Assembly (NCBI GenBank): GCA_964454445.1
Contig: CAYVTD010000001.1
Coordinates: forward strand, 62,121 to 126,120
Reading direction: 5' to 3'
Length of the DNA stretch: 64,000 nucleotides
Source: an uncultured Hyphomicrobiales bacterium
GTDB taxonomy: Bacteria > Bacteroidota > Ignavibacteria > Kapaibacteriales > UBA2268
In this document: in pieces, positions 5,445 through 48,285 of the stretch
How the letters are laid out: every line of letters begins with the position of its first letter
How positions within the stretch are numbered: the stretch's first letter is position 1
Made by a program: the position numbers and the translations under genes
Notes under the pieces: generated by a model
Databases searched by the model: none
Told to the model about the DNA's origin: nothing
What the model saw: the letters and a program-made list of their open reading frames with translations, nothing else

Positions 5445-5447
5445 AAC

Positions 5448-9644: not shown

Positions 9645-9743
9645 AATTCAATTCAAAAAATTATTATTTGTTTGCAAAAAATTTTATATATCTCATATAA
9701 TTGACATAACAAATTATTATAAGATTTATTTTTAATATACTAT

Positions 9744-13906: not shown

Positions 13907-15520
13907 CTATAAAGCTTTTTTCGTTGTCTTCCTGTCTTTGATATGGTAAATCACTTCTCGAAGTTCATATTTTGGTTTTTCTTCTGGTTTGGGAGGTCGC
14001 GAAACAACTATTTCGGTGGTCTCGAGTTTCACTTCACTGCCCCATAAATACTCCAGTCCGATAAGAACTTCAGGAACATATTGCTTAACTAATTGCTTAC
14101 CTTCGAACTTATGCTTGAGATAGAGTGTTTTTTCGTTTGTTTTTTCCAGATTGACTTCGATGACAGGAGGATGGTAGAGCGAATCGAGAAGCATTTGCTT
14201 GTAGTCCTCAGCTTTTCGACTTTTAATGTAATATTCAATAGTGCCTCTTTGTTCATTTAAACGCTGCCCGACAGTGAAAAGGTCGTGCATATCGACAAAA
14301 TCCTGATCGACGAATGTATTGATTAGCATAAAATCAGAGAAATTTGAGCGAAGTGCGAAAATGGCTTCCCTTCCTTTTCCTGTGTTCTGATCAAACTCGT
14401 CGCGATATTCAATGCCATAATGCTTTTGAAAATAATATTGCAACTTCCCTTTGTTTGCAAGCTCTTCGACATATTGTATCAATCGAAGTCCGATAGCATA
14501 AGGATTAAGCCCAATTCTTGTCAATGAAGTAACGCCGGCATTGGTTTTCGAATAGGCAATCTCGTGACCCTTGATTTGCTCGTCGCTTCTGAAAAGCATA
14601 TCATGCCAATAGCTTGCCCAGCCCTCGTTTATTATTTTCGAGCGTATTTGCGGTGCAAAATACATCGAAGTATTGTGGACGATGGTCATCACCGACTTCA
14701 TCCACGAATTCTTTTCTATGGCTAGCAAAGGCGAATTATCGCGAATAAATTCAAGAATGTCGCTATAATGCTCCACATTTACTCTGCTGCTTTCTTTTTC
14801 GAAAAGTGCATCAAACTCCGGGTACTTCCCTCTAACTTCAGAGAAAAACAATGATTCGGCGATAACAGGATCGGCATCAACCAAGGCATTATAGCGAGCC
14901 ACCTCGTTGTATATCTCGTGCGAACGTACTTGCTTGATTTCCTGTAAAAAAACATCAAAATAAAAACTTAGCCGAGCCGAAGCATCTTTTTCTGTTGGAA
15001 ATTGCATTTTGGAGACCTTTTGGAAATATCCACTGATATTGTCAATGCTCCGGCTAAATTCCAAACTATAATCTGTCCATCTGCCATATTCGCTTCGCAG
15101 ATTGGCAATTAGACGTTTGTCTGCAAGTGCCTGCCCAACAAAATCGTCGTTCCAGGTATGCTCGAAAAGCAAATTATTTTGGAAAAAGTCGATATGTCCT
15201 AAAACATGATAAAAAATCATTGTGTTGAGCCAATCGGGATTGTTGTCGTTATAAAATGAAATCGCTGGACGCGAATTAATGACTGTTTCATAAGGGTTGG
15301 AAGGATATAGCTTGTATTTCCCATATTCTTTCAGAACCTCGACATCGTGTACCCAATAATCGTAAAGTGTTGGTATCATTACCTTTGGCGAAAGCTCGAG
15401 CATATCCCTGTTGGTAACAATGTATTCCAAACTTTCGTCGTCGAAATGCAAACCGGCTTGTCGGGCAATTGCCTTGCAATTCTCCATTATTTGCTTAGTT
15501 CTTTGATTGATAAGCTCCAT
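13907..15520 (-). CDS. spoVR: SpoVR/YcgB family protein
   Basis: 537 aa. The conserved YHVLGHIDFFQNN motif resembles the SpoVR H-x-x-GHN-FF-NN block. Confidence 0.6.
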   Translation of the reverse strand: MELINQRTKQIMENCKAIARQAGLHFDDESLEYIVTNRDMLELSPKVMIPTLYDYWVHDVEVLKEYGKYKLYPSNPYETVINSRPAISFYNDNNPDWLNTMIFYHVLGHIDFFQNNLLFEHTWNDDFVGQALADKRLIANLRSEYGRWTDYSLEFSRSIDNISGYFQKVSKMQFPTEKDASARLSFYFDVFLQEIKQVRSHEIYNEVARYNALVDADPVIAESLFFSEVRGKYPEFDALFEKESSRVNVEHYSDILEFIRDNSPLLAIEKNSWMKSVMTIVHNTSMYFAPQIRSKIINEGWASYWHDMLFRSDEQIKGHEIAYSKTNAGVTSLTRIGLNPYAIGLRLIQYVEELANKGKLQYYFQKHYGIEYRDEFDQNTGKGREAIFALRSNFSDFMLINTFVDQDFVDMHDLFTVGQRLNEQRGTIEYYIKSRKAEDYKQMLLDSLYHPPVIEVNLEKTNEKTLYLKHKFEGKQLVKQYVPEVLIGLEYLWGSEVKLETTEIVVSRPPKPEEKPKYELREVIYHIKDRKTTKKAL

Positions 15521-17851: not shown

Positions 17852-18119
17852 TTTTCTCAGGCTATTTAATATAGCTTGTTGTTCAATTAACAAATGTAAC
17901 TTTTCTTCGCTTCAAAACGTCTTTATATTTATAATTATTACAAGAAAAAAAGTTTTGTAAGAATAATAGAATTTGTTTATTTATTTATTTAAATTATTCA
18001 ATACACAAATTTTGTTTGGCAAAGATATAATTTGATAGTATTTTTGTATTTTAAGTTCTCTCTAATAAATAGTAACTGACAAAGTTCATTAAATTTTGTA
18101 TAACCAAACGGAGACCCGT

Positions 18120-20198
18120 ATGAAAAAATTTAGTATCCTCATCATTGCCTTATTAATTGCGCCGATGATGCTTAGCGCATTTAACAAAGAGCTTGCCAAG
18201 AGCTTAAATCCAAATACAGCACCTAACGTTCCGCAGCTAATCCAATTTGGAAATCAGGACAGAATAGTTAGTAGTTCTGCTTTAGAAAAAATCTCGAATC
18301 CTGGCATACTTGCCAACTATAAACCCATCGACACTATCCTTGATGCTTCTCTTAGCATTTTTGACATGGTTAAGCCTGTTGTCTATGAACCAAAATCTAA
18401 TTCATTAATTATTGCAAGTACTTGGCGTGCCCGCATGCAGCAAAGTGATCAGATCTTGACCGGACAAACTTATTGTTACATTTCCACGAATATGGGCACA
18501 AGCTGGGGAACAAAAATGTTGCACGAAGAACTCGGTGTATTGCCTGTTTGGCAAAATATTGCTGTTGTCAATACCGATGGCTCTACAAATCCAGACGATT
18601 TACATTATTTTCTTACTGGTCCATATTACAAATATTCACAAGCCACGAGCAATTATCAGATGAATTATGGGCATTATATCGTTTCTAGCCCTGTCGTTAA
18701 TATGAACTTCACAATGGCTGGACCAGAGGCAAACAATCCGGGCTACACTTGGTGGACTTCATATATCGCAAGCACTGATGGCTTAGGTTTTCCAATGTAC
18801 TTCCACGGTAATATCCTTAACAGCGGAGAAAGCCTTCAATATGGTCCTTATGGTATAACGAGCTTCTTCATTGACCTCGATACTAAAGATGCCAACTATC
18901 AATATTCTGGCATACCAAGCAACTTGGGAACTTCTAATTTCAGACCCTCTCCAGCAATTAATTCTTCATATAATGACAAAGGTTACCCCGGCGCAGACAA
19001 AAATGGAAACCTTTATTTCTGTGTCGATAACATGTTTGCGGACAACCCAGACAGAAGAGTTCCTGCCGTTATGAAATCCAACGATATGGGCACCACCTGG
19101 TCTGCTTGGAATAGAATGCCTGCCTCACTTCTCGAAAATTATGTTGCCGACAACGGTGGCTCGACTGTTTTACCCTTCTATATCGCTTCTTACAATGTTC
19201 AAGACTTTATTGTTATCGATGAAGACAATTATAGCTTCTTTGCCCGGGTCGTTTTCCAAAAAAATGAAGACGAAATCACTTCTCATTTGGTAGAAATCAA
19301 CTATAACGGCTCGCAATGGAAAATCTATGCTATTGCTGAAATCGTTGGAAGCAATTTCTGGGGCAGCAACCATTGGTTTATTATACACAAAGCTTCTGCT
19401 TACGACAATGCTGAAAAAGAATTTATCATCCAATCTCCTTACGAAAACGAAATTAATGCTGCCATTACTGCCGACGGAAAAAGCCTGCTTGTTAAATGGC
19501 TCGATTACAATGGAAATAGAATACCTGTAACTCCAACTGCCACTTTATATCAAGATATGAAAGATGCAAACAACGTCCCCCAGCCAGATAGAGAATGGAA
19601 TTTCGATTCCTTGGATGTTAATGACATTTATTTTGCTTATAGAAATATCAATGGCACCTGGTCTGAAAGAAAGAACCTGACAAACGACAATATGGTCAAT
19701 AACTTGACCTTTATTCCCCATGTAATACCAAGCTTGAACGAAGTGCCACTCATTTCTTACAACACTGTAAAAGCTAACGATCCTTCGTCAATCAGATATA
19801 ACTATCCTTACGAAACAATTACTCAGATGTGTATCGATATGCACGAGACTTCGCAAGGGTTTATGGCATCTCTTGGCGTTACATATATGCTCTTTGACGC
19901 TGTGAACTTCAACAGTGTAGAAGAAAACACCAATACATCTCTGTCTATTGACCAAATGTATCCAAACCCAGCTATGGAAACAATTAATCTGCCTTTAAAC
20001 CTTAATAACAGCGGGTCAGTAAGAGTGGAAGTCTTTACTACACTTGGCGTTAAAGTTGCCAATGTTTTAAACAGCACCCTATCTGCAGGAAGTCACGTCA
20101 TTCCTTTCTCGACTGCTAATCTTAGCTCGGGCATTTATCTCTGCAAAGTTACTGTGGATGGCAACGTAACATCACAGACATTCGTAGTTCAAAGATAA
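18120..20198 (+). CDS. T9SS-secreted BNR/Asp-box repeat protein
   Basis: The likely start is MKKFSIL, a signal peptide, rather than the upstream Met at 18096. Asp-box-like S/T-x-D/N-x-G-x-T/S-W repeats (STNMGTSWG, SNDMGTTWS). C-terminal ~80 aa with YPNP...GIYLCKV matches the T9SS type-A sorting domain. Confidence 0.6.
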   Translation: MKKFSILIIALLIAPMMLSAFNKELAKSLNPNTAPNVPQLIQFGNQDRIVSSSALEKISNPGILANYKPIDTILDASLSIFDMVKPVVYEPKSNSLIIASTWRARMQQSDQILTGQTYCYISTNMGTSWGTKMLHEELGVLPVWQNIAVVNTDGSTNPDDLHYFLTGPYYKYSQATSNYQMNYGHYIVSSPVVNMNFTMAGPEANNPGYTWWTSYIASTDGLGFPMYFHGNILNSGESLQYGPYGITSFFIDLDTKDANYQYSGIPSNLGTSNFRPSPAINSSYNDKGYPGADKNGNLYFCVDNMFADNPDRRVPAVMKSNDMGTTWSAWNRMPASLLENYVADNGGSTVLPFYIASYNVQDFIVIDEDNYSFFARVVFQKNEDEITSHLVEINYNGSQWKIYAIAEIVGSNFWGSNHWFIIHKASAYDNAEKEFIIQSPYENEINAAITADGKSLLVKWLDYNGNRIPVTPTATLYQDMKDANNVPQPDREWNFDSLDVNDIYFAYRNINGTWSERKNLTNDNMVNNLTFIPHVIPSLNEVPLISYNTVKANDPSSIRYNYPYETITQMCIDMHETSQGFMASLGVTYMLFDAVNFNSVEENTNTSLSIDQMYPNPAMETINLPLNLNNSGSVRVEVFTTLGVKVANVLNSTLSAGSHVIPFSTANLSSGIYLCKVTVDGNVTSQTFVVQR

Positions 20199-22162: not shown

Positions 22163-23857
22163 TTAGATTTTTTTTATTGCAACTAAAGTAAGATCATCAT
22201 ATTGCATTGCGGAACCGGCAAAAGCATTAACTTCGTTAACAATGGTTTCGCATATTTGTTTTGCGTTTTTAAAACGGTTGGTTTTAAGAACATTGATTAA
22301 CGAATCATCTCCAAATTCTTCGTTTTTTGGATTGCGGGCTTCATTAATTCCGTCGGTATAGAGCAATATAATATCGTTATGAGTCAATTCGACTCTACCG
22401 ATTTCATAAGGAATTTCTGCATCAGTAAATCCAAGGATCAATCCGCCCTGATTCAGTTCTGTGATATTATTTTTTACGTCGAGAAGGTACGGTGGGTTAT
22501 GTCCGGCATTAATATAAGTGAAAGAATTGTCGCTAGTGTCGATATATCCGCAAAAAAAGGTAACAAATTTGTCAGAAGCGGTGTTTTCGTAAAGAATCTT
22601 GTTTATCCCATAAATTAATCGTGGTAAAGTGTCTGCAAATGGAGTCAATGCACGTAGAGCCGCTTGCACATTTGCCATTAAAAGCGATGCTGGCAATCCC
22701 TTTCCAGACACATCGGCAATGGCAACAAGCAAGCGATTTTTATCCAAGTGAATAAAATCGAAATAGTCGCCTCCGACCTGTCTCGATGGGATAGATAGCC
22801 CAAAAATATCCCATCCGGCAATGTCGGGCTTTGTCTTAGGGAGAAGATTTTTCTGAATTTCGAGAGCGGTATTCATTTCAGTTTCAAGCCGTTTCTTTTC
22901 GAGCTCTTGACGGAAAAGACGTTCGTTTTCGAGTGCAGATATGGCACTATTGCCCAAAGCACTAAGAAATTGTAAATCTTCTTCGCTGTAATCTTCTTTA
23001 TTTAATTTTTTACCGACAATTAAAACACCTTTCGCAAGCCCTTGCACATACATTGGAGAAATCGCTGCAATACCGTTTTTTCTGAATAAATTGGCGTATT
23101 CAGGATTTAATATGGCAGAGGAAAGAGTTGTTGTTTCCACATTTTTAAGCAATTCGATAATTTCAGGATTCAATTCTCCTTCAAACCTGTTAATGATTGG
23201 TTCATTAAAACTATTTTCGTTGGCAAGAAGCAAGGCAAATTTCGTTAGCATAAGATGACCCATCAGCCGATAGGAAAGCATCTTGAGGATTTCATTTTTT
23301 GATAGAAGCGAACTGAAGTCATTGCTTATCTCGAAAAGAGTATTTAGCATTAAATTACGCTTTTCGATATTATTTTTAGCATTTTCGAGCGAAGAATAAT
23401 TACGTGCATTCTGCAAGGAAATGGCGGCAATAGTTGTTACGAGTCTGGCATAAAGCGCTTCTTCAGGCGAAATCTCGTCGCTTACTATTCGTTTGCCGAG
23501 GCAAACAAGAGCGAGGAGTTCGCCACGATAAACAACAGGCGCGGCGCTCTCGAAGCCGGCTATTTTCAATATTTGTTCGCATTCGCTTGCATTGCCAAGT
23601 ATTTTTAGGCAGTGCCCACACAAAATTTCAGATTTCAAAGTGGGGATAACCTTGCTTGTGCTACTGCCTTTACTTATAAACAAATTCAGTTCACTATTGT
23701 TAGCGCTTCGCACATAGACACTCCCGCTGAAAACTCGAAGCTTGCCCATTAAGCTGAGAAGCACGGAATTTAAAATGAATTGTGTATCGTAAGTCTCATT
23801 CAAGCGGGCGCTTAGCTCGAAGAGTGAATCCAAGTTTATCGGGATTTTATTTTCCAA
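22163..23857 (-). CDS. GAF-domain PP2C-type (SpoIIE/RsbU-like) serine phosphatase
   Basis: N-terminal GAF-like regions and a C-terminal PP2C core (GGDYFDF, AIADVSGKGLPASLLM, TDGINEA). Confidence 0.7.
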   Translation of the reverse strand: MENKIPINLDSLFELSARLNETYDTQFILNSVLLSLMGKLRVFSGSVYVRSANNSELNLFISKGSSTSKVIPTLKSEILCGHCLKILGNASECEQILKIAGFESAAPVVYRGELLALVCLGKRIVSDEISPEEALYARLVTTIAAISLQNARNYSSLENAKNNIEKRNLMLNTLFEISNDFSSLLSKNEILKMLSYRLMGHLMLTKFALLLANENSFNEPIINRFEGELNPEIIELLKNVETTTLSSAILNPEYANLFRKNGIAAISPMYVQGLAKGVLIVGKKLNKEDYSEEDLQFLSALGNSAISALENERLFRQELEKKRLETEMNTALEIQKNLLPKTKPDIAGWDIFGLSIPSRQVGGDYFDFIHLDKNRLLVAIADVSGKGLPASLLMANVQAALRALTPFADTLPRLIYGINKILYENTASDKFVTFFCGYIDTSDNSFTYINAGHNPPYLLDVKNNITELNQGGLILGFTDAEIPYEIGRVELTHNDIILLYTDGINEARNPKNEEFGDDSLINVLKTNRFKNAKQICETIVNEVNAFAGSAMQYDDLTLVAIKKI

Positions 23858-24598: not shown

Positions 24599-27500
24599 AT
24601 GAAAACAAAGAAAAATAAATATTCATATATTCTCCTTATTCTCTTTTTATCCATAACCGGCATAAATCAGAAGAGTTATGCCCAGGATATCACTCAAAAC
24701 CTGGTTGTTTACCTACCTTTCGAATGTAGCCCGAAAGACAATAGCGGAAATGGGTACGATGGCATTATTAGAGGCGATCCTCAATGTGTAACCGGTAAAA
24801 TAGGAATGGCATATAAATTCGATGGTATCGACGATTTCATCGAATTGCCAGCCGAACATACTTTGGAATACATTTCGGCAAATGGTTTTTCCTGGTCGAT
24901 GTGGTTTAATTGCTCGAAGATTCCGACAACAATGGCAGCTGGACCAAGCAGCATCTTGCTTTCAGTGGCAGATGACCGCTTGAATGAGGACATTCATCTC
25001 GGCTTTGGCTCGCTGCTATCAAGGGGTAACCAATTTGTTTTCCAAGTAGATGGTTTGGGAGGATTTGGCGGATCGATGTTCTCTCCGCTTACTTATCAGC
25101 CTCCGGGCAATTGGCAAGAAAATGTGTGGTACCATATTTTCGCTGTTCGTGATTACAATTCCAATCAGGTAATATTATATTTAAACGGAACAGAAGTTGC
25201 GAGAACCACATTTACAGGCGACCCAATCAACCGGCAGATGTTTGCAGCTGTCGCGGCTTTTTTTGATGGAAAACCAAGTGTGTTTTTTAATGGAATAATT
25301 GATGAGGTCCGTATTTATAACCGGGCAATAACTCCTGAAGAAGTAAAGCTGATATATGAAATAAGCCCTGATAATCTGACTGCCTACCCTAATCCTTTAG
25401 ATTTCGGCGCAGTTTTTTGCAGCAAAGATTCTTCACAGTTTATAACTTTAAAAAATAATTCTTCGGCATATATAAATATAACAGAAATCAAGTTATCTCG
25501 AGGCAAAGACTTTCAAATCGCAGGCTCAGTTCCTCTTGACATCGCCCCTAATGATTCGGTTAAGATTAATATATTGCTAACTACCCAAGCAGCAGGCATA
25601 TACTACGACACATTAATTGTTAAAAACAGAAATACCATACCTGAATTAAAGGTATTAATTTCAGCAGAAAAAGGCAATCTTAGCTATACCATTAATGGAG
25701 TTAACAATAATAAAATTGATTTTGGCGTTCTCTGCCCTGGCGAAAGCAAGGATACAAGTTTTAGCATAACAACAAATGCCTCTATAAAAACAAAATTTTT
25801 TGGCGAAATATCGCCACCTTTTTCCTTTCTCGATACTGCCATTGCTAATAATTCGACAGAGTTCGACACGGTTGAAACCCGCAATGTGCCTATTCATTTC
25901 GAAGGAAATGCCACCGAAGGAAAAATCTTGGGCATTATGACAATCACTGACCCTTGTGATGAAAAGATATATATCGAATTGACTGCCGATATCCATACCC
26001 CCGCTTTCCAAGTTGAAAGTCCACCAGAAATAGAAATTTGCCCGGGAATGCCCTTCGATAGGATTATTACAATCAAGAATAAGGACAACCAAGCTCTCGA
26101 TTTCTGGCTAAGCGGCACTAATCCTTTATTTTCATTTCAAGATACGGTATTTGTTGATATTGGCAAATCAAAAAATGTGATTGTCCGCTTTGCAGGAAGT
26201 GACTATGGCGGCACTTACACAACTGATATTACACTTGCAACACATTGTGGAATAGACACAACAATTACTCTAACCATTAAAACAAGTGAAATACTCATTG
26301 GATTGAAGCCCGATACGCTCGATTTTGGTGATGTGGTGCTTTGCAATCCCGATACAATCTTGACTCTGGGTATGAGCATTACCAACGAAAATATTGCTAT
26401 TAGACCTATAATGGTTACTAATATAACCATGCCCCGCGAATTCTTTACTTCTATGGACTTAGGCGAAAAATTCAATATCGGTGAGGAACAGACTTACGAG
26501 GTCTATTTCTTTCCAAGAGCGCCGGGTTTGTTCGAAGGCTATATGGAAATAACTTTTGACACTTGCGATGTCAAGAAACGTTTTTTTATTCGCGGACATG
26601 CGAAAAATGTTGAGATGCAAGTAAACAATGAACTCGATTTTGGCAGAGTCATTATAGGCAACACAAAGGATTCTGTTATTGTATTTAAAAATACAGAAAC
26701 AGCTGATTTAATGCTCGAAGAATTTTTTCCTCTTGTCGGTCCCCAATTTGAAATCACTGGATTGAGTAAAACCATTCCTTGCGTGCTTGCCGGAGGAGAT
26801 TCACTCGTTATTTATATAAGATTTAAAGCCGAAGAAGGTATTTTTAACGATACAATCAGAATAAAAGGCAGTTCGCCTTGTGATGTTTTCGATTTTACAA
26901 TACCAATCCAAGGAGAAGGTGTTTGGAAAGCTTATGTTAAAATCATAATTCCAGAGAACCTCAAAGCAGCACCAGGCAATATCCTCAATCTCCCCGTTCA
27001 ATTGGCTGAAGAAATCGACCTTGCTAAATCAAAAATCATGGGTTTCAAGGCTGTTTTAAGTGTAAATCCTACTTTGTTAATACCAAAATACCCAACCCCA
27101 GACGGTTTTTTGGAGAATAGACGCTTAAAAATTAATATCGAACTGCCACCTGAAACACTCGACGACAACATAACCCTTGCATTCTTTCCTTTCAAAGTGG
27201 CTCTTGGCAATAATGATAGAGATACAATCATTATTTCTGATATTTACCCCATAGCGGGCTATACAGATATCGATTCCTCTGCGGGAATTTTTACTCTTGA
27301 TAATGTCTGCTATGAAAATGGTCCTCGTCTTTTCGAATCGGTCGAGAGCTTGGAGCTAATGCCTGTCAAGCCAAACCCTGCCCAAGACATTGCTGAAATT
27401 GAGTTTGAAATAATTGAAGATGCAGTTACGGAAGTTTATATAATTGATATATTTGGCTTAAAAAGAGCAGAAATTTTAAACAAGTATATGAAAGCGGGTA

Positions 27501-27607
27501 GATATTCGCTTATTTTTGATATTTCTCAACTGCCAACAGGTTGCTATTTCTATATTTTAAAGACCTTAACCCAAATGAAATCGGGGAAGTTGCAAATTAG
27601 CAGATAA
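24599..27607 (+). CDS. T9SS-secreted surface protein with N-terminal LamG/concanavalin-A-like lectin domain
   Basis: Signal peptide. LamG-like region (GNGYDG...KFDGIDDFIELP...WSMWF...DEVRIYNRA). C-terminal PNPA...GCYFYILKT is a T9SS sorting domain. Confidence 0.6.
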   Translation: MKTKKNKYSYILLILFLSITGINQKSYAQDITQNLVVYLPFECSPKDNSGNGYDGIIRGDPQCVTGKIGMAYKFDGIDDFIELPAEHTLEYISANGFSWSMWFNCSKIPTTMAAGPSSILLSVADDRLNEDIHLGFGSLLSRGNQFVFQVDGLGGFGGSMFSPLTYQPPGNWQENVWYHIFAVRDYNSNQVILYLNGTEVARTTFTGDPINRQMFAAVAAFFDGKPSVFFNGIIDEVRIYNRAITPEEVKLIYEISPDNLTAYPNPLDFGAVFCSKDSSQFITLKNNSSAYINITEIKLSRGKDFQIAGSVPLDIAPNDSVKINILLTTQAAGIYYDTLIVKNRNTIPELKVLISAEKGNLSYTINGVNNNKIDFGVLCPGESKDTSFSITTNASIKTKFFGEISPPFSFLDTAIANNSTEFDTVETRNVPIHFEGNATEGKILGIMTITDPCDEKIYIELTADIHTPAFQVESPPEIEICPGMPFDRIITIKNKDNQALDFWLSGTNPLFSFQDTVFVDIGKSKNVIVRFAGSDYGGTYTTDITLATHCGIDTTITLTIKTSEILIGLKPDTLDFGDVVLCNPDTILTLGMSITNENIAIRPIMVTNITMPREFFTSMDLGEKFNIGEEQTYEVYFFPRAPGLFEGYMEITFDTCDVKKRFFIRGHAKNVEMQVNNELDFGRVIIGNTKDSVIVFKNTETADLMLEEFFPLVGPQFEITGLSKTIPCVLAGGDSLVIYIRFKAEEGIFNDTIRIKGSSPCDVFDFTIPIQGEGVWKAYVKIIIPENLKAAPGNILNLPVQLAEEIDLAKSKIMGFKAVLSVNPTLLIPKYPTPDGFLENRRLKINIELPPETLDDNITLAFFPFKVALGNNDRDTIIISDIYPIAGYTDIDSSAGIFTLDNVCYENGPRLFESVESLELMPVKPNPAQDIAEIEFEIIEDAVTEVYIIDIFGLKRAEILNKYMKAGRYSLIFDISQLPTGCYFYILKTLTQMKSGKLQISR

Positions 27608-27634: not shown

Positions 27635-30112
27635 ATGAAAAACTCGACGCTAATAATCTTTCTTGTGTTTGCAAGCCTGCTCGCAATGCCGGCTATTGCA
27701 CAAGTAGATACATTGCGTCCCCGTTACGGTTTATCAGCAGGAGCGAATTCCAACTATCATTTCGCCGATTTTCGCGCCATACCCGGTGTGCCAAACTGCT
27801 GCCCTGTTTTTGAAAACGGATATGGCTTTGCCCCTTATGCTGTCGCCCTTATCGAATATCCAATCAACGATTTATTCTTGCTTGGCTTAAAAGCAGGTTA
27901 TTCCAACGAATCGGCTATATTGACAAAAGAAGAGCAAACCACAGTTATGGTCGCTCTAAAAGAGACAAATGGTGTTTTTGAACACGAAATTAATGCAAAA
28001 TTAGCTGGAATAGTCGTCGAGCCAACTCTTGCTTATCGATTAACTAGCGATTTTTATGCTTTTGCAGGCTTCCAGGCAGGATTTATTTTGCAAAAAGATT
28101 TCGAGCAAATCGAAAGAATCGTTAAACCTGAAAACACAGGTGTTTTCATCGATACAAGAACGCGCGAGCGAAATTACCAAACTGGTGAAATACCTAATAC
28201 TCAAATCTTTACTGGAGGGGTAAAACTTGGTTGTTTCTATGAGTTACCAATGAATAGCAAGAAAACTTTTTTAATTGTTCCCGAAATTTCAATAAACATT
28301 GGTCTCATCGACATTGTGAAAGAAGTAAGTTGGAAACCATCAGCTATTTCTGCAGGAATTTCACTAAAATATACTCCTTTTGAAACTGTTTATATGCACA
28401 AACAGTTGTTTTATATCGATACTGCAAGAATAAAAACAAATACCCACAGCCAACCTCAATTTGTTTATGGAAAACCAATAATCAACAATTCAGAAAAAGA
28501 AGTGAAAGACAGTGTCTTTTATATTCAAGAAGTTACAAGAACAGACACGCTTTTTCTGCCAAAAACAAGAAGCGAAAGAATAAGCGAGAGAATAGATACA
28601 ACAAGCGTATTTAGCAAAGATGTTGATACTCCAACTGTTGTAATTGGGAAATATTTCGAAAGAAGCAGGGAATTGCCCGGACCAGATACTATTCTAGTTT
28701 TAAAAGAGCAATTTCGCACAGACTCCTTGCTTAAACCAATGCGTAGAGTTAATGTCAGCGAATCAATTGCCGACACGATAAAAAAACTAAGTCCTGACAT
28801 TGACGATACGATGATTGTCAAAGGACAAGAAAAGGAAAGTTTAAGAGAAGTAGGCGAGGGAGAAACTCTTTTCGTTTATAAAACCATATCCAGAACTGAT
28901 ACTTTGTTGATACCTGATTATTCTGGTATCAAGCTGAAAGCCGGCATTGCTGTTTATGGCTTATTGCCTTCGCGAGATACAGTGCCTTTGCAAAATATCA
29001 CCTTGCGCATGCAATATACAACAGAGGTCTATCCTTTGTTGCCATACATATTTTTCGATGCCAATTCATCAATTATTCCAAAAAGGTACAAGCAATTAAC
29101 CCCTGATGCCCAATTTTATCAAGAGGATATCGAACCTAACCCAATGCGAATCCATTATAATTGCTTGAATATCATTGCAGACAGAATGAACAAACAATCA
29201 GTTTCAGCAATTACAATTCGCGGCTTTGCTGACCCTTACACAGAGCCAAATAATTGCGAACTTGCTCTCAAAAGAGCCAATGCAATCAAAGAGTATCTTG
29301 TTAGCCGCGGAGCTGCGCCTGAAAAAATCACAGTTGTTGCAAGCAAAACAAATTGCTATTCTCCAAAGCCAACAAGGAGCGACAATGAACTCGGTTATTC
29401 GGAAAACCGCCAAGCAGTTATCGAATCAGATGACCAGCAAATACTTTCACCCGTTTATGGCAGACGTTACCTTAACCCAATGAATATTATGCCCGATACG
29501 CTGCTATTTAATCCTGAAGGATCATCTAAACGAATAATCTCAAGATGGATGCTTTCTGTTACACAAACAGGACAAACCATACTTTACAAGCAAGGAGAAG
29601 GAAGACCTGTAATCGTTAAATATGGATTTAATGAAAAAGACGCTAAGAAATTAAAACCGGATTTGCCAATTAATATCGAATATAAGGTCTTTGATGACAA
29701 TGGAGAAGTGTCGATAGCAGTCGAACCTCTTGGCATAGTTAGAGAAACAGATAATTATGAGATTGAGAGGCTTTCGCTTACTTTGTTCCCGATTGGACAA
29801 AATACACTAACCGACGAAATGCGTCGCCAGACCTTAGAATTCCTCAAAGGACTCGATAGACAATCGACAATAGGAATTAAAGCATATTGCGATATGCTCG
29901 GAGGCGAAAAGACCAATAAATTCCTTGCTGAAACACGTGCCGAAGAAATCTATCGCTTCATTCGCCGCAGCGCTCCTTCGGCAAGGATAACAGATGTGAA
30001 AGCTTATGCAGAAAAATACTTTCCTCCGGGCATTTCTTCATATAATTTACCTGAAGAACGTTTTTTAAGCAGAACTGTCGCCATCGAAATCAGGAAGCGA
30101 AGATCCCCATAA
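27635..30112 (+). CDS. outer-membrane protein with two C-terminal OmpA-like peptidoglycan-binding domains
   Basis: Signal peptide plus beta-rich N-terminus. Two OmpA-like modules (RGFADPYTEPNNCELALKRANAIKEYL and AYCDMLGGEKTNKFLAETRAEEIYRFI). Confidence 0.5.
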   Translation: MKNSTLIIFLVFASLLAMPAIAQVDTLRPRYGLSAGANSNYHFADFRAIPGVPNCCPVFENGYGFAPYAVALIEYPINDLFLLGLKAGYSNESAILTKEEQTTVMVALKETNGVFEHEINAKLAGIVVEPTLAYRLTSDFYAFAGFQAGFILQKDFEQIERIVKPENTGVFIDTRTRERNYQTGEIPNTQIFTGGVKLGCFYELPMNSKKTFLIVPEISINIGLIDIVKEVSWKPSAISAGISLKYTPFETVYMHKQLFYIDTARIKTNTHSQPQFVYGKPIINNSEKEVKDSVFYIQEVTRTDTLFLPKTRSERISERIDTTSVFSKDVDTPTVVIGKYFERSRELPGPDTILVLKEQFRTDSLLKPMRRVNVSESIADTIKKLSPDIDDTMIVKGQEKESLREVGEGETLFVYKTISRTDTLLIPDYSGIKLKAGIAVYGLLPSRDTVPLQNITLRMQYTTEVYPLLPYIFFDANSSIIPKRYKQLTPDAQFYQEDIEPNPMRIHYNCLNIIADRMNKQSVSAITIRGFADPYTEPNNCELALKRANAIKEYLVSRGAAPEKITVVASKTNCYSPKPTRSDNELGYSENRQAVIESDDQQILSPVYGRRYLNPMNIMPDTLLFNPEGSSKRIISRWMLSVTQTGQTILYKQGEGRPVIVKYGFNEKDAKKLKPDLPINIEYKVFDDNGEVSIAVEPLGIVRETDNYEIERLSLTLFPIGQNTLTDEMRRQTLEFLKGLDRQSTIGIKAYCDMLGGEKTNKFLAETRAEEIYRFIRRSAPSARITDVKAYAEKYFPPGISSYNLPEERFLSRTVAIEIRKRRSP

Positions 30113-30514
30113 TAGCTTATCGACAGCTATTTTTTGATAGGAGAGCCCTTTCCGCAGGGCAATATCACCAAAAAATCCAAATTCTTTGATTATTGGCTTA
30201 CGAAAATCAGTTTCATCGAAATTAATTGTTTCTGTTGCCTTCTCCGCGATTATTCCTAATTTGATAAGTTTATCTATGTGATGTGTTTTTAGCACTATAA
30301 TTCTTGTACTTAACAGTTTCTGCGAGGCTTCTCCAGTTAAGCTTTTTTTTATGTCAATTACGGATATCAACTCCCCATGATAATTTAATTCACCGGCAAA
30401 AATTGTTGAACTCTTATGTTTGCTTGCAAGAGGCACAAGCGGTATTACTTCAATGATATTCATCGAGTGAATGATATAATAGTTATCATCAATTTGAAAT
30501 TGCAAGTAAAGCAT
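30065..30514 (-). CDS. cheW: chemotaxis coupling protein CheW
   Basis: 149 aa, CheW-like fold pattern (GELNYHGELISVIDIKK...RIIVLK). Its 3' end overlaps the convergent upstream gene by 48 bp. Confidence 0.6.
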   Translation of the reverse strand: MLYLQFQIDDNYYIIHSMNIIEVIPLVPLASKHKSSTIFAGELNYHGELISVIDIKKSLTGEASQKLLSTRIIVLKTHHIDKLIKLGIIAEKATETINFDETDFRKPIIKEFGFFGDIALRKGLSYQKIAVDKLLWGSSLPDFDGDSSA

Positions 30515-30525
30515 TCATTAATCTC

Positions 30526-32823
30526 CTATCTTACTTGTTCATTATTCTCTTTTTTTTCCTCGACAATAAAATGAGAAAGCTCCTCCTGCAGAGTCGCAGA
30601 AGCATTTTTAAGATTACCTGTGGCAAAATTAAAATCAACAAGCGAGTTTCTTGTTTGAATACTGACAGAATTAAGCTGTTCCATCGTTTCTTCGATTTGC
30701 TTTGTGCTGTCAGCCTGCATTTTCATTGCCTCATTTATCAAAGAAAACTGTGAAATCAAATCTTGCATTTTTTCAATGATGTCTTCCAATTCCAAGCTAA
30801 TAGCAGCAATCTTGGCAGAACCTTTTTGCATTTGTTCGGCAAAATCATCGACAGAGCGGGATCCCTGATCAACGGTTTCATGCATTTCGTTTAAAAGAGA
30901 TTCGATATTTAATGCTGCTACGGAAGTCTCGTCGGCAAGTTTTCTAATCTCAATTGCGACAACAGAAAAACCTGCACCGTAATTTTCAGTGCTTTCGCTT
31001 GAAGTTTCGGTGGTTCTGCTGCTTTCCCTGTTAAAAGTCGCATTGAGATTTTCTGCTTCAATAGCAGCATTGAGCGACAACAAGTTAGTCTGGTTAGCAA
31101 CTTTGGTGATTGTGTTGATTACTTTGCTTATATTTGCGCTTCGCTGGGTGATAAGTTCGAGTTTTTCGTGAATAATGGCAACAGAGTTTAGCAGAGTTGA
31201 AATAGCAACTCTAATTCCCTCGACACCTTCGAGTCCCTTATGAGCTGCGTCAGAGCTGTCTTGTGCTTTGTTTGAAACATCGTCCATTGTGCCAGAAAGC
31301 TCTTGAGAAACAGCCCGAATCTGCATGCTAATGGTTACTGTTTCGCTTGTCGAAGCAACCTGTTCGGCAACGCTTGCCTCAAGATTTTTTGCTAATTCGG
31401 TTATAACAGATGCAGAAATGGACACTTGTCGAGCTGTAATTGTAACGTTTATAAGTAATTTATTAAGTGAAGTCGTCATTTTGGCGGCAGAAAGAAACAG
31501 TTTGTATATCTCGTCTTTAAAATCGCTTAGATCCTTTACCGATTTCACCCCGGCAAACATCTTCGTCGCCTGCGCTGCCTCTATGAGTTTATATGCTGCC
31601 TGTATATTGCCCGATGCAATTTCAATGATAATTTTTGTAACAAGTAACAATGGTTTGGTAATTCTATTTAAAATGAGAATGGAAAAAACAAATGCCAGAA
31701 GCATTGCCCCGATGCTAATGCCAAGAGCGTAGTTCCTTGCTTCAATGTATTCTGCTTTTCTAAGAGCGAGGAGTTCTCCCAATTGACTAATAGTTGCCAA
31801 CCAAAATTTATTTTCTTTATCAATTGCATTCAATCCCTCATTTTCGTATCTCCTTAGTTTTTCGTTTGAATTCTGTATATTATTACTGCTATCATTGTGG
31901 ATTGTGCTATCGCTGGCTTCGCGGGCAATTAAATTGTTTTCAGTTAAACTGAAAAAGCCAATAAGTGAATTCTCATATTCCACAAAAACATTTTCAAGCT
32001 TTTCTTGCAAAGGTAAATAAATACCATAAAAATTCTTATCCTCGTTCTTTGCTGTTTTGAGGAGATTATTAATATTGTCTAATGCTTCATTTTTTATTTC
32101 AGAAATGTGAAAACTTATGAGTTGCAACTCTTTAGAGCTTTGTTTATATTGCGATTGTGATTGAAAAGAAGAAAGCTCTGAAAGCGGTTCTTGCAGCAAA
32201 CTACTCATTCCAGCAGAAAAAACACTGTTTGTATGTTTGCACAGTTCAGGCATTTGCAACAAGGCAATATCCATAAGGCAATATGAATCAAGGTCGGGAT
32301 CAAGCAAAAGATTTGATTCTTCAGCAATTAATCGTATTAATTTATTAACTCTCTCAATAATTTCTTGATTATTACGAAAAAAAACGTTTAGATCTTTTGA
32401 ATAGTCCTTTGATTTAATGATTTCCCAATCAGCTTTTATGGCTTCTGGAAAGATTTCTTTATGAGAAAGAGAATTTGAATAGGACAGTTGGAAATCATCT
32501 TGACCAGACTTCAAATTTTCATAAAAGCTGGACAAAGCAGAATCAGCATCGTCCTGTGATGCTTTTATGTTATTCTCAATTTCAGAACTGCTATCAAATC
32601 GAATTTTGCTCATACAAAAAAACTGGTTTTCATTTATTGATCTGCTAAATTTGGCAAGCGGCTCGATGAGTTTTGTACCAGCAATTTCCTTTTTGGCAAA
32701 ATTGATATGCTGATTATAGCCCGAGATGACATAATACAACAACACTGCTATTGGCAATGCAAAGATAATACAGATAATTCCTAATTTTAATGTAATGCTT
32801 GTATTTCTCGAAAAAGATTTCAT
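30526..32823 (-). CDS. methyl-accepting chemotaxis protein with an atypical signalling tip
   Basis: N-terminal TM, periplasmic domain, second TM, HAMP. The MCP signalling domain contains LLSLNAAIEAE...GAGFSVVAIEIRKLADE, with a Ser/Thr-rich insertion at the hairpin tip. Confidence 0.75.
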   Translation of the reverse strand: MKSFSRNTSITLKLGIICIIFALPIAVLLYYVISGYNQHINFAKKEIAGTKLIEPLAKFSRSINENQFFCMSKIRFDSSSEIENNIKASQDDADSALSSFYENLKSGQDDFQLSYSNSLSHKEIFPEAIKADWEIIKSKDYSKDLNVFFRNNQEIIERVNKLIRLIAEESNLLLDPDLDSYCLMDIALLQMPELCKHTNSVFSAGMSSLLQEPLSELSSFQSQSQYKQSSKELQLISFHISEIKNEALDNINNLLKTAKNEDKNFYGIYLPLQEKLENVFVEYENSLIGFFSLTENNLIAREASDSTIHNDSSNNIQNSNEKLRRYENEGLNAIDKENKFWLATISQLGELLALRKAEYIEARNYALGISIGAMLLAFVFSILILNRITKPLLLVTKIIIEIASGNIQAAYKLIEAAQATKMFAGVKSVKDLSDFKDEIYKLFLSAAKMTTSLNKLLINVTITARQVSISASVITELAKNLEASVAEQVASTSETVTISMQIRAVSQELSGTMDDVSNKAQDSSDAAHKGLEGVEGIRVAISTLLNSVAIIHEKLELITQRSANISKVINTITKVANQTNLLSLNAAIEAENLNATFNRESSRTTETSSESTENYGAGFSVVAIEIRKLADETSVAALNIESLLNEMHETVDQGSRSVDDFAEQMQKGSAKIAAISLELEDIIEKMQDLISQFSLINEAMKMQADSTKQIEETMEQLNSVSIQTRNSLVDFNFATGNLKNASATLQEELSHFIVEEKKENNEQVR

Positions 32824-32835
32824 AACTTGCCTCGT

Positions 32836-35031
32836 TTACTTGCTTATTTTGAATTGGGAAACTTCTCTTTGCAATCCTTTTACTGCCTCATTTAATTGCA
32901 AAGTAACATTATGGAACTCCCCGAGGGACTCTTTCGTTTGCTCGGCGGCAGTTTTCAATTGATTCATTGCCTCATTAATCTCGAAAGCACCTTCTGATTG
33001 CGCACTAATGCTTGTGTCGATAGCTTCAAATTCAGGGGTTAGCCTCAATATATGTTCGATTATTAACTCAATATTGTGTGTGATAACCGATACCTTGTTA
33101 GCTCCGGATTTGACTTCAATACCAAATTTATCCATTTCCATAACGCCCGAGCTTACAGACCCTTGCATCTCCTTTACCATAAATTCGATGTCTTTTGTGG
33201 CAGTTGCAGTTTGAACGGCAAGACGGCTAATTTCGCGTGCAACAACAGAAAAGCCCTTGCCGAAATCGCCTGCCTTCTCGGCTTCGATAGCTGCATTGAG
33301 CGAAAGCAATTTGGTTTGTTCGGAAATCTTGTTGATAGCTGTAATTATGCCGTTAATCTTATCGGCTTTGTCACTAATTATAGAAAGTTTTGTTGAAATA
33401 GAGTTCGTGGCAGTTGTCAGCGATTTCATCGTATTTTCCAGTTCTATGAGCATCTTGCTGCCAGCTTCAGCTTCGCCAACCGTTGCATCGACGGTTTCGC
33501 CAGAGCGTCGAACAGTTGTCAACAGCTCTTCAGCCCTGTCGGAAATCTCTTTACTCGAGACGCTGACCTGTCTAGTCGAAGCGGCTTGCTCGGCTACAGT
33601 TGCCTCTAATTGCCGTGATGAGGCTGTTATCTCAGTAGCTGAAGTGGTTACTTGGATACCAGATTGCTGCACTTGACCAATGAGCGAGAAAAGATTGGAA
33701 GTCATTTTGGCAAAAGATCGCAAAAGTTCGCTTATCTCATCTTTATAATTTTTGCTTTGGATAGCTTTTATTTGGCTGTCAATATCGTTTTTCGCCTCAC
33801 GTAGTTTGCCTTCAGCTATTTTTTTGGCTAAATTGCTAATAAATCCAATTGGCTTGGAGATGGTGTTCGATAGAAAAATAGCAAGAAGTATGGCTAAGAC
33901 TAATATTGAAACACCATAAATTATTAAATTTTCTCTTAATGAAATAAATTTCCTTTCGAGATTAGAAATAGTATCGTAATATTCATCTTTGTAAACTCCT
34001 GTGCCGATAACCCAATCCCAAGGCTCGAAATAGGTGATTGCAACAACTTTTTCGCGTGCTGTTGCCTCACCGATATTTTTCCATTTATATTCTTTGAAAT
34101 AATTCTCCCCTTCTTTTAATGTAAGCGCCTTTTCGACTATTTCCTTAATAAAAAACTTACCTTCGCTATCGGTTGATTCCAGAATGTTTTCCCCGTCGCG
34201 TTCGCCATTTTTGGAAATGATGTAATGTCCTTTGTTGCTTTTACCACCTAGAACATAGACATAGCCAGTTTTCCCCGGTTTAATTCGCAATATTGCATTT
34301 CTAAGAGATTTTGCAGCAGCAAGCTTTTCTCCTGTATATATCATTCCGATCACTTCGCCTCTACTATCCAGAATTGGCTCATAAACGGTCAAGCACCATT
34401 CGTTAACAACATAAGCCCTGCCATGATAGGTTTTATGGTCAAGAATGGATTGCAGCACCGGATTGTCGCTTCCGTCGGGATTGATATGCGGTATGAATGA
34501 GCTAATGGCTCTTTCTTTTCCGGCTGTTTGCACATTGGTTGCCACCCTTAGCATATCACCTTCGCTGTTCATTCTTTGAAATATTGTGCAAGTAAGCCCA
34601 TAAGACTCACCAACATCATCAACAATAGGAATGTATTGCTCCAGATTGGTTGAAGCAGTAATTGGTCTGCCACCCAGCAAAATCGAAGGCAGTTCCACAG
34701 TCCTTGTTTCGCCGTTAAATTGATTGACGGCTTCCCATTTTTGCATTTTTCCAATGAAAGACAAACCACCTTTTTGTTTAATAGTCGTTTCTGCAAAATG
34801 AATGGCTCGAGAAAGACGTTCATGAAGTAACTCGTCGCTTGATAGACACAGATTGTAAACATCTTTAGAAATCTGCGATATATTCGCTTTTGCAAGGTTG
34901 TCAATTTCATGCTCTGCTTCGACAAGCATTATCTTTTCTTGAAATACTATTAAAACAACTATTACAATCACTGGTAGAAGAGCAGAAATAATGGCAATAG
35001 ATATTATTTTTCCTTTTAATGATAGTTTCAC
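32836..35031 (-). CDS. methyl-accepting chemotaxis protein with Cache-type periplasmic sensor
   Basis: TM, ~300-aa periplasmic Cache-like domain, TM, HAMP, and a canonical tip LLSLNAAIEAEKAGDFGKGFSVVAREISRLA. Confidence 0.8.
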   Translation of the reverse strand: MKLSLKGKIISIAIISALLPVIVIVVLIVFQEKIMLVEAEHEIDNLAKANISQISKDVYNLCLSSDELLHERLSRAIHFAETTIKQKGGLSFIGKMQKWEAVNQFNGETRTVELPSILLGGRPITASTNLEQYIPIVDDVGESYGLTCTIFQRMNSEGDMLRVATNVQTAGKERAISSFIPHINPDGSDNPVLQSILDHKTYHGRAYVVNEWCLTVYEPILDSRGEVIGMIYTGEKLAAAKSLRNAILRIKPGKTGYVYVLGGKSNKGHYIISKNGERDGENILESTDSEGKFFIKEIVEKALTLKEGENYFKEYKWKNIGEATAREKVVAITYFEPWDWVIGTGVYKDEYYDTISNLERKFISLRENLIIYGVSILVLAILLAIFLSNTISKPIGFISNLAKKIAEGKLREAKNDIDSQIKAIQSKNYKDEISELLRSFAKMTSNLFSLIGQVQQSGIQVTTSATEITASSRQLEATVAEQAASTRQVSVSSKEISDRAEELLTTVRRSGETVDATVGEAEAGSKMLIELENTMKSLTTATNSISTKLSIISDKADKINGIITAINKISEQTKLLSLNAAIEAEKAGDFGKGFSVVAREISRLAVQTATATKDIEFMVKEMQGSVSSGVMEMDKFGIEVKSGANKVSVITHNIELIIEHILRLTPEFEAIDTSISAQSEGAFEINEAMNQLKTAAEQTKESLGEFHNVTLQLNEAVKGLQREVSQFKISK

Positions 35032-45951: not shown

Positions 45952-48285
45952 ATGAAAAAAAAAGAAGAAGATGTTAATGTAAATGATGACGATTTTCGCG
46001 GCAAAGCAGCTCGTCTCGAAGATTTATTAAAACTCAGCAAAAATTTTCAAGACGAAGAGCGGAGGACTCCAATACCTTTCAATGACTTTCTTTTTCTGGC
46101 ATCACAACAGCCCAGGCTCGTCTTTCGCGACATTTTTACACTTTTCAACGATATGGTCCATCATTATGTGCCAAACCTCGAAGAGGAAAGAAACGACCCG
46201 GAGTTTATTAACTTTATAGGTTACGACAGCACTAATTTATTTGTCAAAGACTGCGATAATCCATTTTTCGCCGACCGGTTGTTTATCAATCGTTTTATGA
46301 ATCTTGTAGAGGGAATGAAGCAGGTCTCGCTCCAGAATCATATTTATCTTTTCGAGGGACCTCCCGGAAGCGGCAAAAGCACTTTTTTAAACAATCTTCT
46401 ACAACGTCTAGAAGAATACACTCGTATCGATGACGGAGCTGTTTACAAAACTTATTGGCGACTTAATCTCGACAAACTTGGCGGACGTAACAACTTTCAA
46501 TCGCGATTACAGGAACAACTGCAGGAAAACGATGTAAACGAAAACGATTTTAGCATTCCTGCAATGAAGAATTATAATATGCCTAATTACGAAAGGATCA
46601 ACAAAAAATTTATCGAATTCTCCTGCCCTCGACACGATCATCCGATTCTGCAAATTCCGAAGAGTTTTCGTGCTAACTTCTTGAAAGAACTGTTGCCAGA
46701 TAGCGAGTTTAAAGAGCAATTATTCGAAAATACCGAATATAAATGGATATTTAAAGATATACCATGCAATATATGCAAATCATTGTTTTCAACCTTGCTC
46801 GATATCCTTGGCGATCCGCTGTTGTGCTATGATATGATCAGCGCCCGCAGGGCACGTTTCAACAGACAGTTCGGTGAAGGTTTGAGCATATTTAATCCCG
46901 GCGATCCCGTCTATCGCAAACCGATTCAAAATGTACAACTTGAGAATATGTTAAACAATCTGCTCAAAACAGACAATATCGATTTTGTTTATTCCTATCT
47001 CGCAAAGACAAACAATGGAGTGCTTGCCTTGATGGACATAAAAGAGGCAAACGTCGAGCGACTCAAGAGCTTACACGGCATCATCAGCGACGGCGTTCAA
47101 AAAGTTGAGCTAATCGAAGAGCAGATTAAAACACTTTTCATCGGTTTAGTCAATCCCGAAGACAGACACCATTTCGAAAATGTCAAATCATTTCAAGATA
47201 GAATAATTACTGTCAATATCCCTTATGTGCTCGACTATCAAACGGAGGTGCAAATTTATAAAAACAAATTTGGTGATGATATAAGCGAAGCGTTTTTGCC
47301 GAGAGTTCTCGATAATTTTGCTAAAATAATTATTTCCTCGCGAATGGAATCTGACTCACCTGCTTTTCGGAAATGGATAGCACAGCCACAAAAATACAGC
47401 AAATATCTCGACAAGAATATGTTGCTCTTGAAAATGCAAGTTTATAGCGGAAGAATTCCAACTTGGCTTTCAGAGGAAGACGAAAAACGCTTCGACAAGG
47501 CAACCCGCAAAGCTTGCATAGCCACCGCCGAATTAGAAGGCAAAAAAGGCATTTCCGGCAGAATGTCACTAAGTGTTTTCAATAGCTTTTTTACAAAGTA
47601 TGCTTCCAACGACAAAATGATAACAATGGAATGTGTAAAAGATTTCTTTATGAAAAAAATTGTTGCTCCTCCCTTCAACGAAATCCCTGACGGATTTATC
47701 GGCTCGCTCGAAGATATGTACGATTTTGACGTATTGCAGGAAGTTAAGGAGGCGATTTATTATTATAATGAGTTGCAAATTTCCAAAGACATTCAGAACT
47801 ATCTTTTTGCCTTAAATTACGACATTGGCGAGACAAAGCGCTGCGAATTCACCGGCGACAATATTGAAATCACTGAAGATTTTTTCAAAAATTTCGAAGC
47901 AATGTTTCTCGGCACCACAAGCACAACGACTTCACGCAAACTATTTCGCAAAGATGTGCATAATGAATACATTTCCAAGGGCCTTTCGTATGAAATTCGA
48001 CTGGAAGGCAAAAGCATAACCGAAACATCAATTTTCAAATCACTTTTCGATCGCTATACGCGCAATCTCAAGGAAAATGCTTTAGCACCATACAGTGAGA
48101 ACGAAAATTTCCGTCGAGCTATCATTGCTTTTGGCACCGATGAATTCAACACTTACGACTCACGTTTGCAGCGCGATATCGAACGTATGCTCGACAATCT
48201 CGTAAAGAAATTCAAATATTCGACAGAAGGCGCCCGCCAAGTAAGTTTGTATGTGCTTGATAAAAAACTAGTAAAAAAATATTGA
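45952..48285 (+). CDS. prkA: PrkA-family AAA+ protein (serine protein kinase PrkA/YeaG-like), long variant
   Basis: Walker A GPPGSGKST, then EEYTRIDDGAVYK and CPRHDHPILQIP. From memory these resemble the Bacillus PrkA blocks GPVSGGKST...EAYSKTDEGAIYA...CPMHEDPLHLIP. At 777 aa it is ~140 aa longer than typical PrkA. Confidence 0.55.
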   Translation: MKKKEEDVNVNDDDFRGKAARLEDLLKLSKNFQDEERRTPIPFNDFLFLASQQPRLVFRDIFTLFNDMVHHYVPNLEEERNDPEFINFIGYDSTNLFVKDCDNPFFADRLFINRFMNLVEGMKQVSLQNHIYLFEGPPGSGKSTFLNNLLQRLEEYTRIDDGAVYKTYWRLNLDKLGGRNNFQSRLQEQLQENDVNENDFSIPAMKNYNMPNYERINKKFIEFSCPRHDHPILQIPKSFRANFLKELLPDSEFKEQLFENTEYKWIFKDIPCNICKSLFSTLLDILGDPLLCYDMISARRARFNRQFGEGLSIFNPGDPVYRKPIQNVQLENMLNNLLKTDNIDFVYSYLAKTNNGVLALMDIKEANVERLKSLHGIISDGVQKVELIEEQIKTLFIGLVNPEDRHHFENVKSFQDRIITVNIPYVLDYQTEVQIYKNKFGDDISEAFLPRVLDNFAKIIISSRMESDSPAFRKWIAQPQKYSKYLDKNMLLLKMQVYSGRIPTWLSEEDEKRFDKATRKACIATAELEGKKGISGRMSLSVFNSFFTKYASNDKMITMECVKDFFMKKIVAPPFNEIPDGFIGSLEDMYDFDVLQEVKEAIYYYNELQISKDIQNYLFALNYDIGETKRCEFTGDNIEITEDFFKNFEAMFLGTTSTTTSRKLFRKDVHNEYISKGLSYEIRLEGKSITETSIFKSLFDRYTRNLKENALAPYSENENFRRAIIAFGTDEFNTYDSRLQRDIERMLDNLVKKFKYSTEGARQVSLYVLDKKLVKKY

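Follow-up and report, generated by a model that had tools for sequence, protein, structure and literature searches.

The hairpin tip of chemoreceptors (methyl-accepting chemotaxis proteins, MCPs) is among the most conserved protein segments of bacteria. Insertions and deletions (indels) in the MCP signalling subdomain are essentially unknown, as reportedly shown by the heptad-class analysis of Alexander and Zhulin in 2007. Canonical tips, such as those of Tsr (residues ~370-410) and of the Thermotoga receptor TM1143 (PDB 2CH7), bend through a turn of fixed length, which comprises 8 residues and carries an R/K-A-G-E motif. Here, we describe a receptor that departs from this trait. It is a 765-aa transmembrane MCP, hereafter P0001, encoded at positions 30526-32823 on the reverse strand of a 64,000-nucleotide stretch of DNA from an uncultured bacterium (assembly GCA_964454445.1, contig CAYVTD010000001.1, positions 62,121 to 126,120; hereafter the window, with its first letter as position 1). 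In P0001, 27 residues instead of 8 separate the IEA and GF motifs on either side of the turn. This insertion is very unusual among MCPs and represents a true and rare structural variant.

The described systems closest to this locus are the Wsp pathway of Pseudomonas, which belongs to the alternative cellular function (ACF) class, and, for the output of related clusters, the Che1 system of Shewanella oneidensis. Like WspA, P0001 is a transmembrane MCP whose gene directly precedes one for a CheW (the position of WspB), and its relatives keep the order MCP-CheW-CheR(TPR)-CheW-CheA~REC-CheB-response regulator, with a kinase named WspE; moreover, P0001 has a length that would suit the 40H class, which includes the WspA orthologues (PMC11253619). 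The differences from Wsp are equally clear: the output of the relatives' clusters is a REC-PP2C protein accompanied by STAS and anti-sigma-kinase genes rather than the GGDEF protein WspR, these clusters hold two or three receptors instead of one, and the window is devoid of the kinase half of the cluster. P0001 itself differs from WspA in its tip, which is longer by 19 residues, and in its large, helical periplasmic domain of ~330 aa, which has no Pfam match. Like the relatives' clusters, the Che1 system (CrsR/CrsA) links a chemosensory cluster to a partner-switching module made up of an anti-sigma-type kinase and a STAS antagonist (PMC9855816); however, Che1 is of the F7 type with CheY and CheD, its receptors and gene order differ, and the window holds none of these genes.

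The enlarged turn and its occurrence

In translation, the tip of P0001 reads NQTNLLSLNAAIEAENLNATFNRESSRTTETSSESTENYGAGFSVVAIEIRKLADE, within a signalling region composed of NQTNLLSLNAAIEAE-NLNATFNRESSRTTETSSESTENYGA-GFSVVAIEIRKLADE. The corresponding segment of the MCP encoded upstream (32836-35031, reverse strand) is LLSLNAAIEAEKAGDFGKGFSVVAREI, with the canonical turn AIEAEKAGDFGKGF, and the 8-residue spacing seen there is also that of the relatives. The whole U-turn segment of P0001, E591-A617 (ENLNATFNRESSRTTETSSESTENYGA), is encoded at 30973-31053 on the reverse strand, and its coordinates were verified on the DNA (G618 at 30970-30972, F619 at 30967-30969). Within this segment, 19 residues (A595-E613; 30985-31041, reverse strand) cannot be matched to any residue of canonical family members in the family alignment, and a phmmer comparison with the Thermotoga receptor structure 2CH7 leaves a 19-residue gap precisely at the AR-AGE-AG U-turn. 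The Pfam MCPsignal model (PF00015) matches P0001 with 73.4 bits (cut-off 34.6), in two stretches separated by the insertion. In the 27-residue turn, Ser, Thr and Glu occur five times each and Asn four times. The family's K-A-G-E has been replaced by N-L-N...N, such that the equivalents of Tsr R388, A389, G390 and E391 are N, L, N and N, respectively.

That this loop reflects an assembly error, a frameshift artefact or a pseudogene is extremely improbable. No support for such an origin was found, as a genuine in-frame insertion would likewise split the Pfam match. The P0001 gene is nucleotide-identical in four independent assemblies (JGI 3300010357, the NCBI metagenome-assembled genome GCA_029562445.1, ENA ERZ27257481 and JGI Ga0116178), and a fifth assembly, ERZ27250648, holds a 99%-identical strain variant with 11 substitutions, no indel and the same loop. 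Because the assemblies derive from different samples and share no erroneous read set, they already refute an artefact. The reading frame of the gene is also unbroken, and the family motif GAGFSVVA resumes exactly past the loop. Finally, P0002, an orthologue described below, holds an in-frame version of the same tip insertion that adds 27 nt. On the grounds of the four identical assemblies and the in-frame orthologous version, we rejected an artefact or frameshift origin.

The assignment of P0001 as a transmembrane MCP follows from the list of open reading frames (ORFs), the translation, the Pfam MCPsignal match, the AlphaFold model and comparisons with the PDB by sequence and by Foldseek, where its best matches are MCP structures. 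The protein comprises a first transmembrane helix (~13-34), an all-helical periplasmic domain of the size given above, a second transmembrane helix (~364-387), a HAMP-like linker and a long helical hairpin. In the AlphaFold2 monomer, based on a 51-sequence alignment and with a mean predicted local confidence (pLDDT) of 77.6, helices 493-603 and 615-723 pack into an antiparallel hairpin at a pLDDT of ~80, as in canonical tips. Confidence drops to 64 and then 43 over residues 591-610, is below 50 for residues 603-614, and 604-614 are coil; the insert is therefore predicted to consist of a low-confidence helix extension and a disordered loop. The periplasmic sensor (residues ~35-365; 31729-32721, reverse strand), which has no match in Pfam, is modelled with high pLDDT, bears the family-wide motifs LDPDLDSY and EDKNFYG, and gave a weak Foldseek match to the NIT domain of NasR (4akk, E 0.017).

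Judged from the alignments, the contact residues for the trimer, CheW and CheA on both tip helices of P0001 are intact. The receptor keeps the canonical flanks NQTNLLSLNAAIEAE and GAGFSVVAxEIRKLA, together with the equivalents of Tsr N381, E385, F396, E402 and R404, and conservation between P0001 and P0002 peaks, at 83%, in the block that immediately precedes the turn (571-600). In the E. coli core unit, the interface residues are Q374, I377, L378, L380, N381, A383, V384, E385, R388 and R404 (PMC13098124). Their mapped equivalents in P0001 (Q578, L581, L582, L584, N585, A587, I588, E589 and R627) are all identical or family-typical, and the only altered CheA/CheW contact is the R388 equivalent, where the lysine of the family is replaced by N592. 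The turn residues R388, G390 and E391 are functionally important in E. coli, and E391C cross-links to CheW (PMC13098124). Replacements of R388 in Tsr leave trimers and complexes in place and shift or lock kinase output (PMC6681711). When the 94 residues flanking the turn were compared, without the turn itself, with a hidden Markov model (HMM) of 141 other family members, P0001 and P0002 scored 130 and 132 bits, which is within the family range (mean 143.6, standard deviation 9.3, minimum 107).

The predicted methylation site is likewise in place. The motif ASVAEQVAST at residues 483-492 fits the consensus [ASTG][ASTG]xx[EQ][EQ]xx[ASTG][ASTG], with the heptad register kept, and starts 102 residues before the N381 equivalent in P0001 and in every family member checked. 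In the family, 14 heptads (98 residues) separate the EQ pair within this motif from the N381 equivalent, and 150-154 residues separate the N381 equivalent from the C-terminus in canonical relatives. The corresponding distance from the methylation pair to N381 in Tsr, a 36H receptor, is 84 residues. By these distances, the P0001 family would fit the 40H type of receptor, which has 20 heptads per arm of the cytoplasmic hairpin.

To see how widely the enlarged turn occurs, the family was searched exhaustively with HMMER over 1.84 billion representatives, and a word-indexed search was run as well. Among the 150 best family representatives at 50% identity, 149 keep the 8-residue turn, and the word-indexed search agrees; the same spacing was found in all 26 other MCP tips of the loci that were fetched. 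The sole exception, P0002, is the only close orthologue of P0001 (53-55% identity), and its tip, ENLNAKLTGENSENFGA, carries 9 additional residues at the same site. As its sequencing run, SRR6924042, also yields a GyrB that is 89% identical to that of the window, P0002 comes from a related species. The next relative, P0303 (40% identity), has a canonical 8-residue turn. Further insertion-bearing orthologues were found neither by a scan of genome contigs, which returned only distant MCPs of Clostridia, nor by a metagenome scan, which returned the same organism and relatives at 22-28% identity with canonical tips. Likewise, no natural tip insertion like that of P0001 was found in the literature searched for that purpose, nor did the assembly accession turn up in a paper.

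These results bear out most of what an earlier note on this DNA had claimed from the letters alone. It had placed an insertion of ~19 aa at the hairpin U-turn, within 30960-31090, and this interval does enclose the extra residues, which are in frame. The spacing of ~8 residues that it gave for canonical MCPs and for the neighbouring receptor agrees with the translation and with the relatives, and its description of the insertion as unusual is matched by the 149 of 150 representatives with a spacing of 8. Of the checks that it proposed, the comparison with an MCP signalling-domain HMM returned the split match described above. The question of whether orthologues retain the insertion received a divided answer, as the closest orthologue does (+9), while all other representatives are canonical. 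The outcomes that would have spoken against the claim, a frameshift artefact or absence from all orthologues, were not encountered, since several assemblies and P0002 carry the insertion.

The two loops share their ends, with NLNA at the start and E-x-x-E-N-[FY]-GAGF at the end, and 10 of the 17 aligned loop residues are identical, which is not above the average of the protein. A 30-nt block (10 codons, E600-S609; 30997-31026, reverse strand) is present in the window and missing from the orthologous gene at locus L001, which encodes P0002. In the DNA alignment, this block opens with GAAAGCA, and an identical heptamer lies directly 3' of it; a 7-nt direct repeat at a 30-nt indel is the pattern expected of a slippage-type duplication or deletion. 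Tandem Repeats Finder detected no repeat array in the insert region, and a tandem-repeat or mobile origin of the insert is not supported, with only this 7-nt direct repeat at the 30-nt indel. P0001 carries further lineage-specific loop insertions at residues 211-224, 296-305 and 319-324. The first two are low-complexity insertions in periplasmic loops (32152-32193, QEPLSELSSFQSQS, and 31909-31938, NNLIAREASD; both reverse strand), which are absent from or shorter in P0002 and absent from the wider family.

Wsp-like relatives and gene neighbourhood

Sequence comparison identifies P0001 as orthologous to the receptors of Wsp-like (ACF-class, non-motility) clusters. The relatives P0003 to P0008, which share 30-37% identity with P0001 (E 1e-64 to 1e-90, 96-99% coverage), occupy the second MCP position of their clusters, in the order Cache-MCP, P0001-family MCP, CheW, CheR with TPR, CheW, CheA-REC, CheB and REC-PP2C. 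The Wsp gene order is complete in loci L009, L010 and L012 and partial in L008, and the CheA of these clusters is named WspE by both JGI and NCBI. The clusters end in REC-SpoIIE (PP2C), and a REC-GGDEF output such as WspR was seen neither in them nor in the window. Together, they look like a chemosensory pathway whose output enters a partner-switching module, present in the Fibrobacteres-Chlorobi-Bacteroidetes (FCB) group and other uncultured bacteria. The clusters with a REC-PP2C output span 6188-18484 in L009, 4337-19089 in L010 and 5906-17614 in L012, and STAS and anti-sigma-kinase genes accompany those of L009 and L010.

The window and L001 do not follow this order and hold only MCP-MCP-CheW, followed by a convergent gene for an OmpA-like protein; L001 as a whole reads OmpA-like, Cache-MCP, MCP, CheW, OmpA-like. 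In the window, the Cache_3-Cache_2 MCP with the canonical 8-residue tip (32836-35031, reverse strand; from Pfam and the ORF list) lies 12 nt upstream of the P0001 gene, and this pairing of a Cache-MCP with a P0001-family MCP recurs in L001, L009, L010 and L034. Downstream, at a distance of 11 nt, follows the gene for a CheW of 149 aa (30065-30514, reverse strand; Pfam CheW, 46.7 bits), which is the orthologue of the first CheW (WspB position) of the related Wsp-like clusters and keeps all family-invariant residues in the alignment. Given the spacings of 12 and 11 nt, the three genes form an apparent operon. The 3' end of cheW overlaps that of the convergent gene for the OmpA-like protein (825 aa) by 48 nt (30065-30112), and the same arrangement is found in L001 (6782-7231 versus 7187-9691).

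Pfam scans, which covered ORFs of at least 120 aa not nested in a longer ORF, found no CheA, CheY, CheB or CheR in the 64-kb window, where the chemosensory genes are limited to the two MCPs and the CheW. P0303 is encoded in an MCP-MCP-MCP locus without CheW or CheA and yet has a canonical tip. The missing adjacent CheA is therefore not specific to the insertion, and loss of the adjacent che core as a cause of the insertion is weakened accordingly. A candidate CheA for the same genome, P0127, retrieved with the WspE-like CheA of L012 as the query, was rejected as belonging to another organism; it comes from sister samples, differs in GC content (31.5% versus 36.9%) and has its own complete cluster. 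At 22163-23857 (reverse strand), ~6.2 kb from cheW, the window encodes a 564-aa protein with a C-terminal PP2C (SpoIIE) domain, a 370-aa N-terminal region without Pfam match and no REC domain.

Readings of the expanded turn

On balance, we lean towards P0001 being a Wsp-type receptor that can still assemble and that tolerates a disordered loop at its solvent-exposed turn, where the loop may bias kinase control. It would be a genuine, expressed-looking Wsp-type (ACF, non-motility) 40H-like receptor of an uncultured Ignavibacteria/Kapabacteria-like bacterium, and one small lineage would have gained an in-frame low-complexity loop exactly at the solvent-exposed U-turn. Such a receptor would still form dimers and, probably in a mixture with the co-transcribed Cache-MCP, trimers of dimers; it would also still bind the co-transcribed CheW and would couple to a WspE-like CheA if the genome encodes one elsewhere. 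Six of the acidic, Ser/Thr-rich loops would project beneath the tip of each receptor trimer and would at most bias kinase control, through the loss of the R388-like basic residue and through steric or electrostatic effects near the kinase. Since the loop occurs in two related species only, varies in length and sits between conserved partner-binding surfaces, it resembles an expansion that is tolerated, or that modulates signalling mildly, more than a new signalling device.

Several observations weigh against this reading. CheA, CheR, CheB and a response regulator are absent from the window and from the surroundings of P0002, and the kinase partner is therefore assumed. None of the turn residues R388, G390 and E391 of Tsr is preserved. 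The predicted structure is that of a monomer and has no covariation information for the loop, so that AlphaFold2 says only that nothing ordered is predicted there. The insertion is confined to two lineages, and the conservation of its ends is inseparable from shared ancestry. Between these two species, P0001 (54.5%) and CheW (53%) are less conserved than the flanking genes (61-68%), the identity of the Cache-MCP being 66%. At the strain level, the ratio of non-synonymous to synonymous polymorphism (pN/pS) is 0.72 for the MCP-MCP-CheW trio versus 0.30 for the neighbours (29 and 64 differences, two-sided Fisher p = 0.07), a marginal non-synonymous excess with small counts, the P0001 gene having 11 substitutions. 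Taken together, the divergence, the pN/pS values and the three extra insertions point to a fast-evolving, indel-prone receptor and not to a specifically engineered tip.

Some of these points would also fit an uncoupled or decoy receptor. In this scenario, the Wsp-like kinase core was lost or dispersed, and the tip, freed from constraint, is decaying without control of CheA; P0001 would then be inert, or its action would be limited to forming trimers together with the Cache-MCP or to sequestering CheW by titration. Indeed, the CheR-CheW-CheA-CheB-response regulator part of L008, L009, L010 and L012 is missing beside CheW in both the window and L001, and the replaced R388, G390 and E391 equivalents, the divergence and strain-level pN/pS above those of neighbouring genes and the unstable loop length between species are all in keeping with decay. 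However, five assemblies and a species at 53-55% identity all hold an uninterrupted ORF, no part of the protein is better conserved than the tip flanks, whose scores are within the family range, and the methylation motif and CheW are intact. In addition, P0303, which keeps its canonical tip without adjacent che genes, argues against a truncated context as a predictor of tip decay, and MCP genes are often located away from their che core. We therefore regard an uncoupled receptor as rather unlikely. The earlier note had pointed to a cluster with CheW but without CheA, CheY, CheB or CheR, which holds across the whole window, and had suggested a non-canonical partner or a decoy. Neither suggestion is shown or favoured by the family-range flank scores, the retention of all mapped contacts but one, and the intact methylation register and CheW.

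Conversely, the loop could have acquired a function of its own, as a flexible, acidic and Ser/Thr-rich stretch that undergoes phosphorylation or dephosphorylation, or that recruits a new partner to the base of the receptor, and could rewire signalling towards a PP2C/partner-switching output. The insertion ends common to both species would be consistent with this idea, as would the REC-PP2C and STAS/anti-sigma-kinase module at the end of the relatives' clusters, which works by Ser/Thr phosphorylation, and the REC-less PP2C gene at 22163-23857. We nevertheless consider it improbable: the middle of the loop is unconserved and contains the 10-codon indel, the identity of the aligned loop is no higher than the protein average, and similar low-complexity inserts occur in periplasmic loops, beyond the reach of cytoplasmic kinases. 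Moreover, the comparison involves two sequences, and no partner was identified. Still more doubtful, and in our view highly improbable, is the more specific proposal of a functional, possibly phospho-regulated tether, by which the Wsp-type receptor and CheW would signal without the ancestral CheA, for example by recruiting the PP2C phosphatase or another partner. If true, this would be the first natural chemoreceptor with the invariant kinase-control turn turned into a new interaction site.

Returning to the preferred reading of a tolerated loop, we consider that replication slippage in a fast-evolving receptor probably produced the loop, which would be nearly neutral and not a new module. P0001 and P0002, with their expansions of 19 and 9 residues, conserved partner-binding helices and adjacent CheW, show that the turn can expand in nature. 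P0001 could serve as a test case for the share of the turn (R388, G390 and E391 in Tsr numbering) that is needed for assembly as opposed to kinase control, and it bears on whether non-motility (Wsp-like) arrays tolerate more than flagellar ones. In practical terms, an insertion restricted to two uncultured species has limited reach.

Other features of the window

For four of the ORFs covered in the search for che genes (BipA, HemC, an AI-2E transporter and Tricorn), identities were read from the existing annotation of identical contigs; the ORF at 949-1611 had no Pfam match. A 1023-aa TPR-CHAT protein followed by a 544-aa TPR protein is encoded at 3810-8519 (reverse strand). Three large secreted proteins with C-terminal sorting domains of the type IX secretion system (T9SS) are encoded at 18096-20198, 24599-27607 and 60935-63907. 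The relatives of the window's GyrB are 72-74% identical and named Ignavibacteria, Kapabacteria or Bacteroidota, which, together with the T9SS domains, places the organism near that group; a scan of GTDB species representatives did not contain the source genome. Genes for PrkA-type Ser kinases and SpoVR-like proteins usually share one operon; in the window, they lie 30 kb apart, at 45952-48285 on the forward strand and at 13907-15520 on the reverse strand, respectively.

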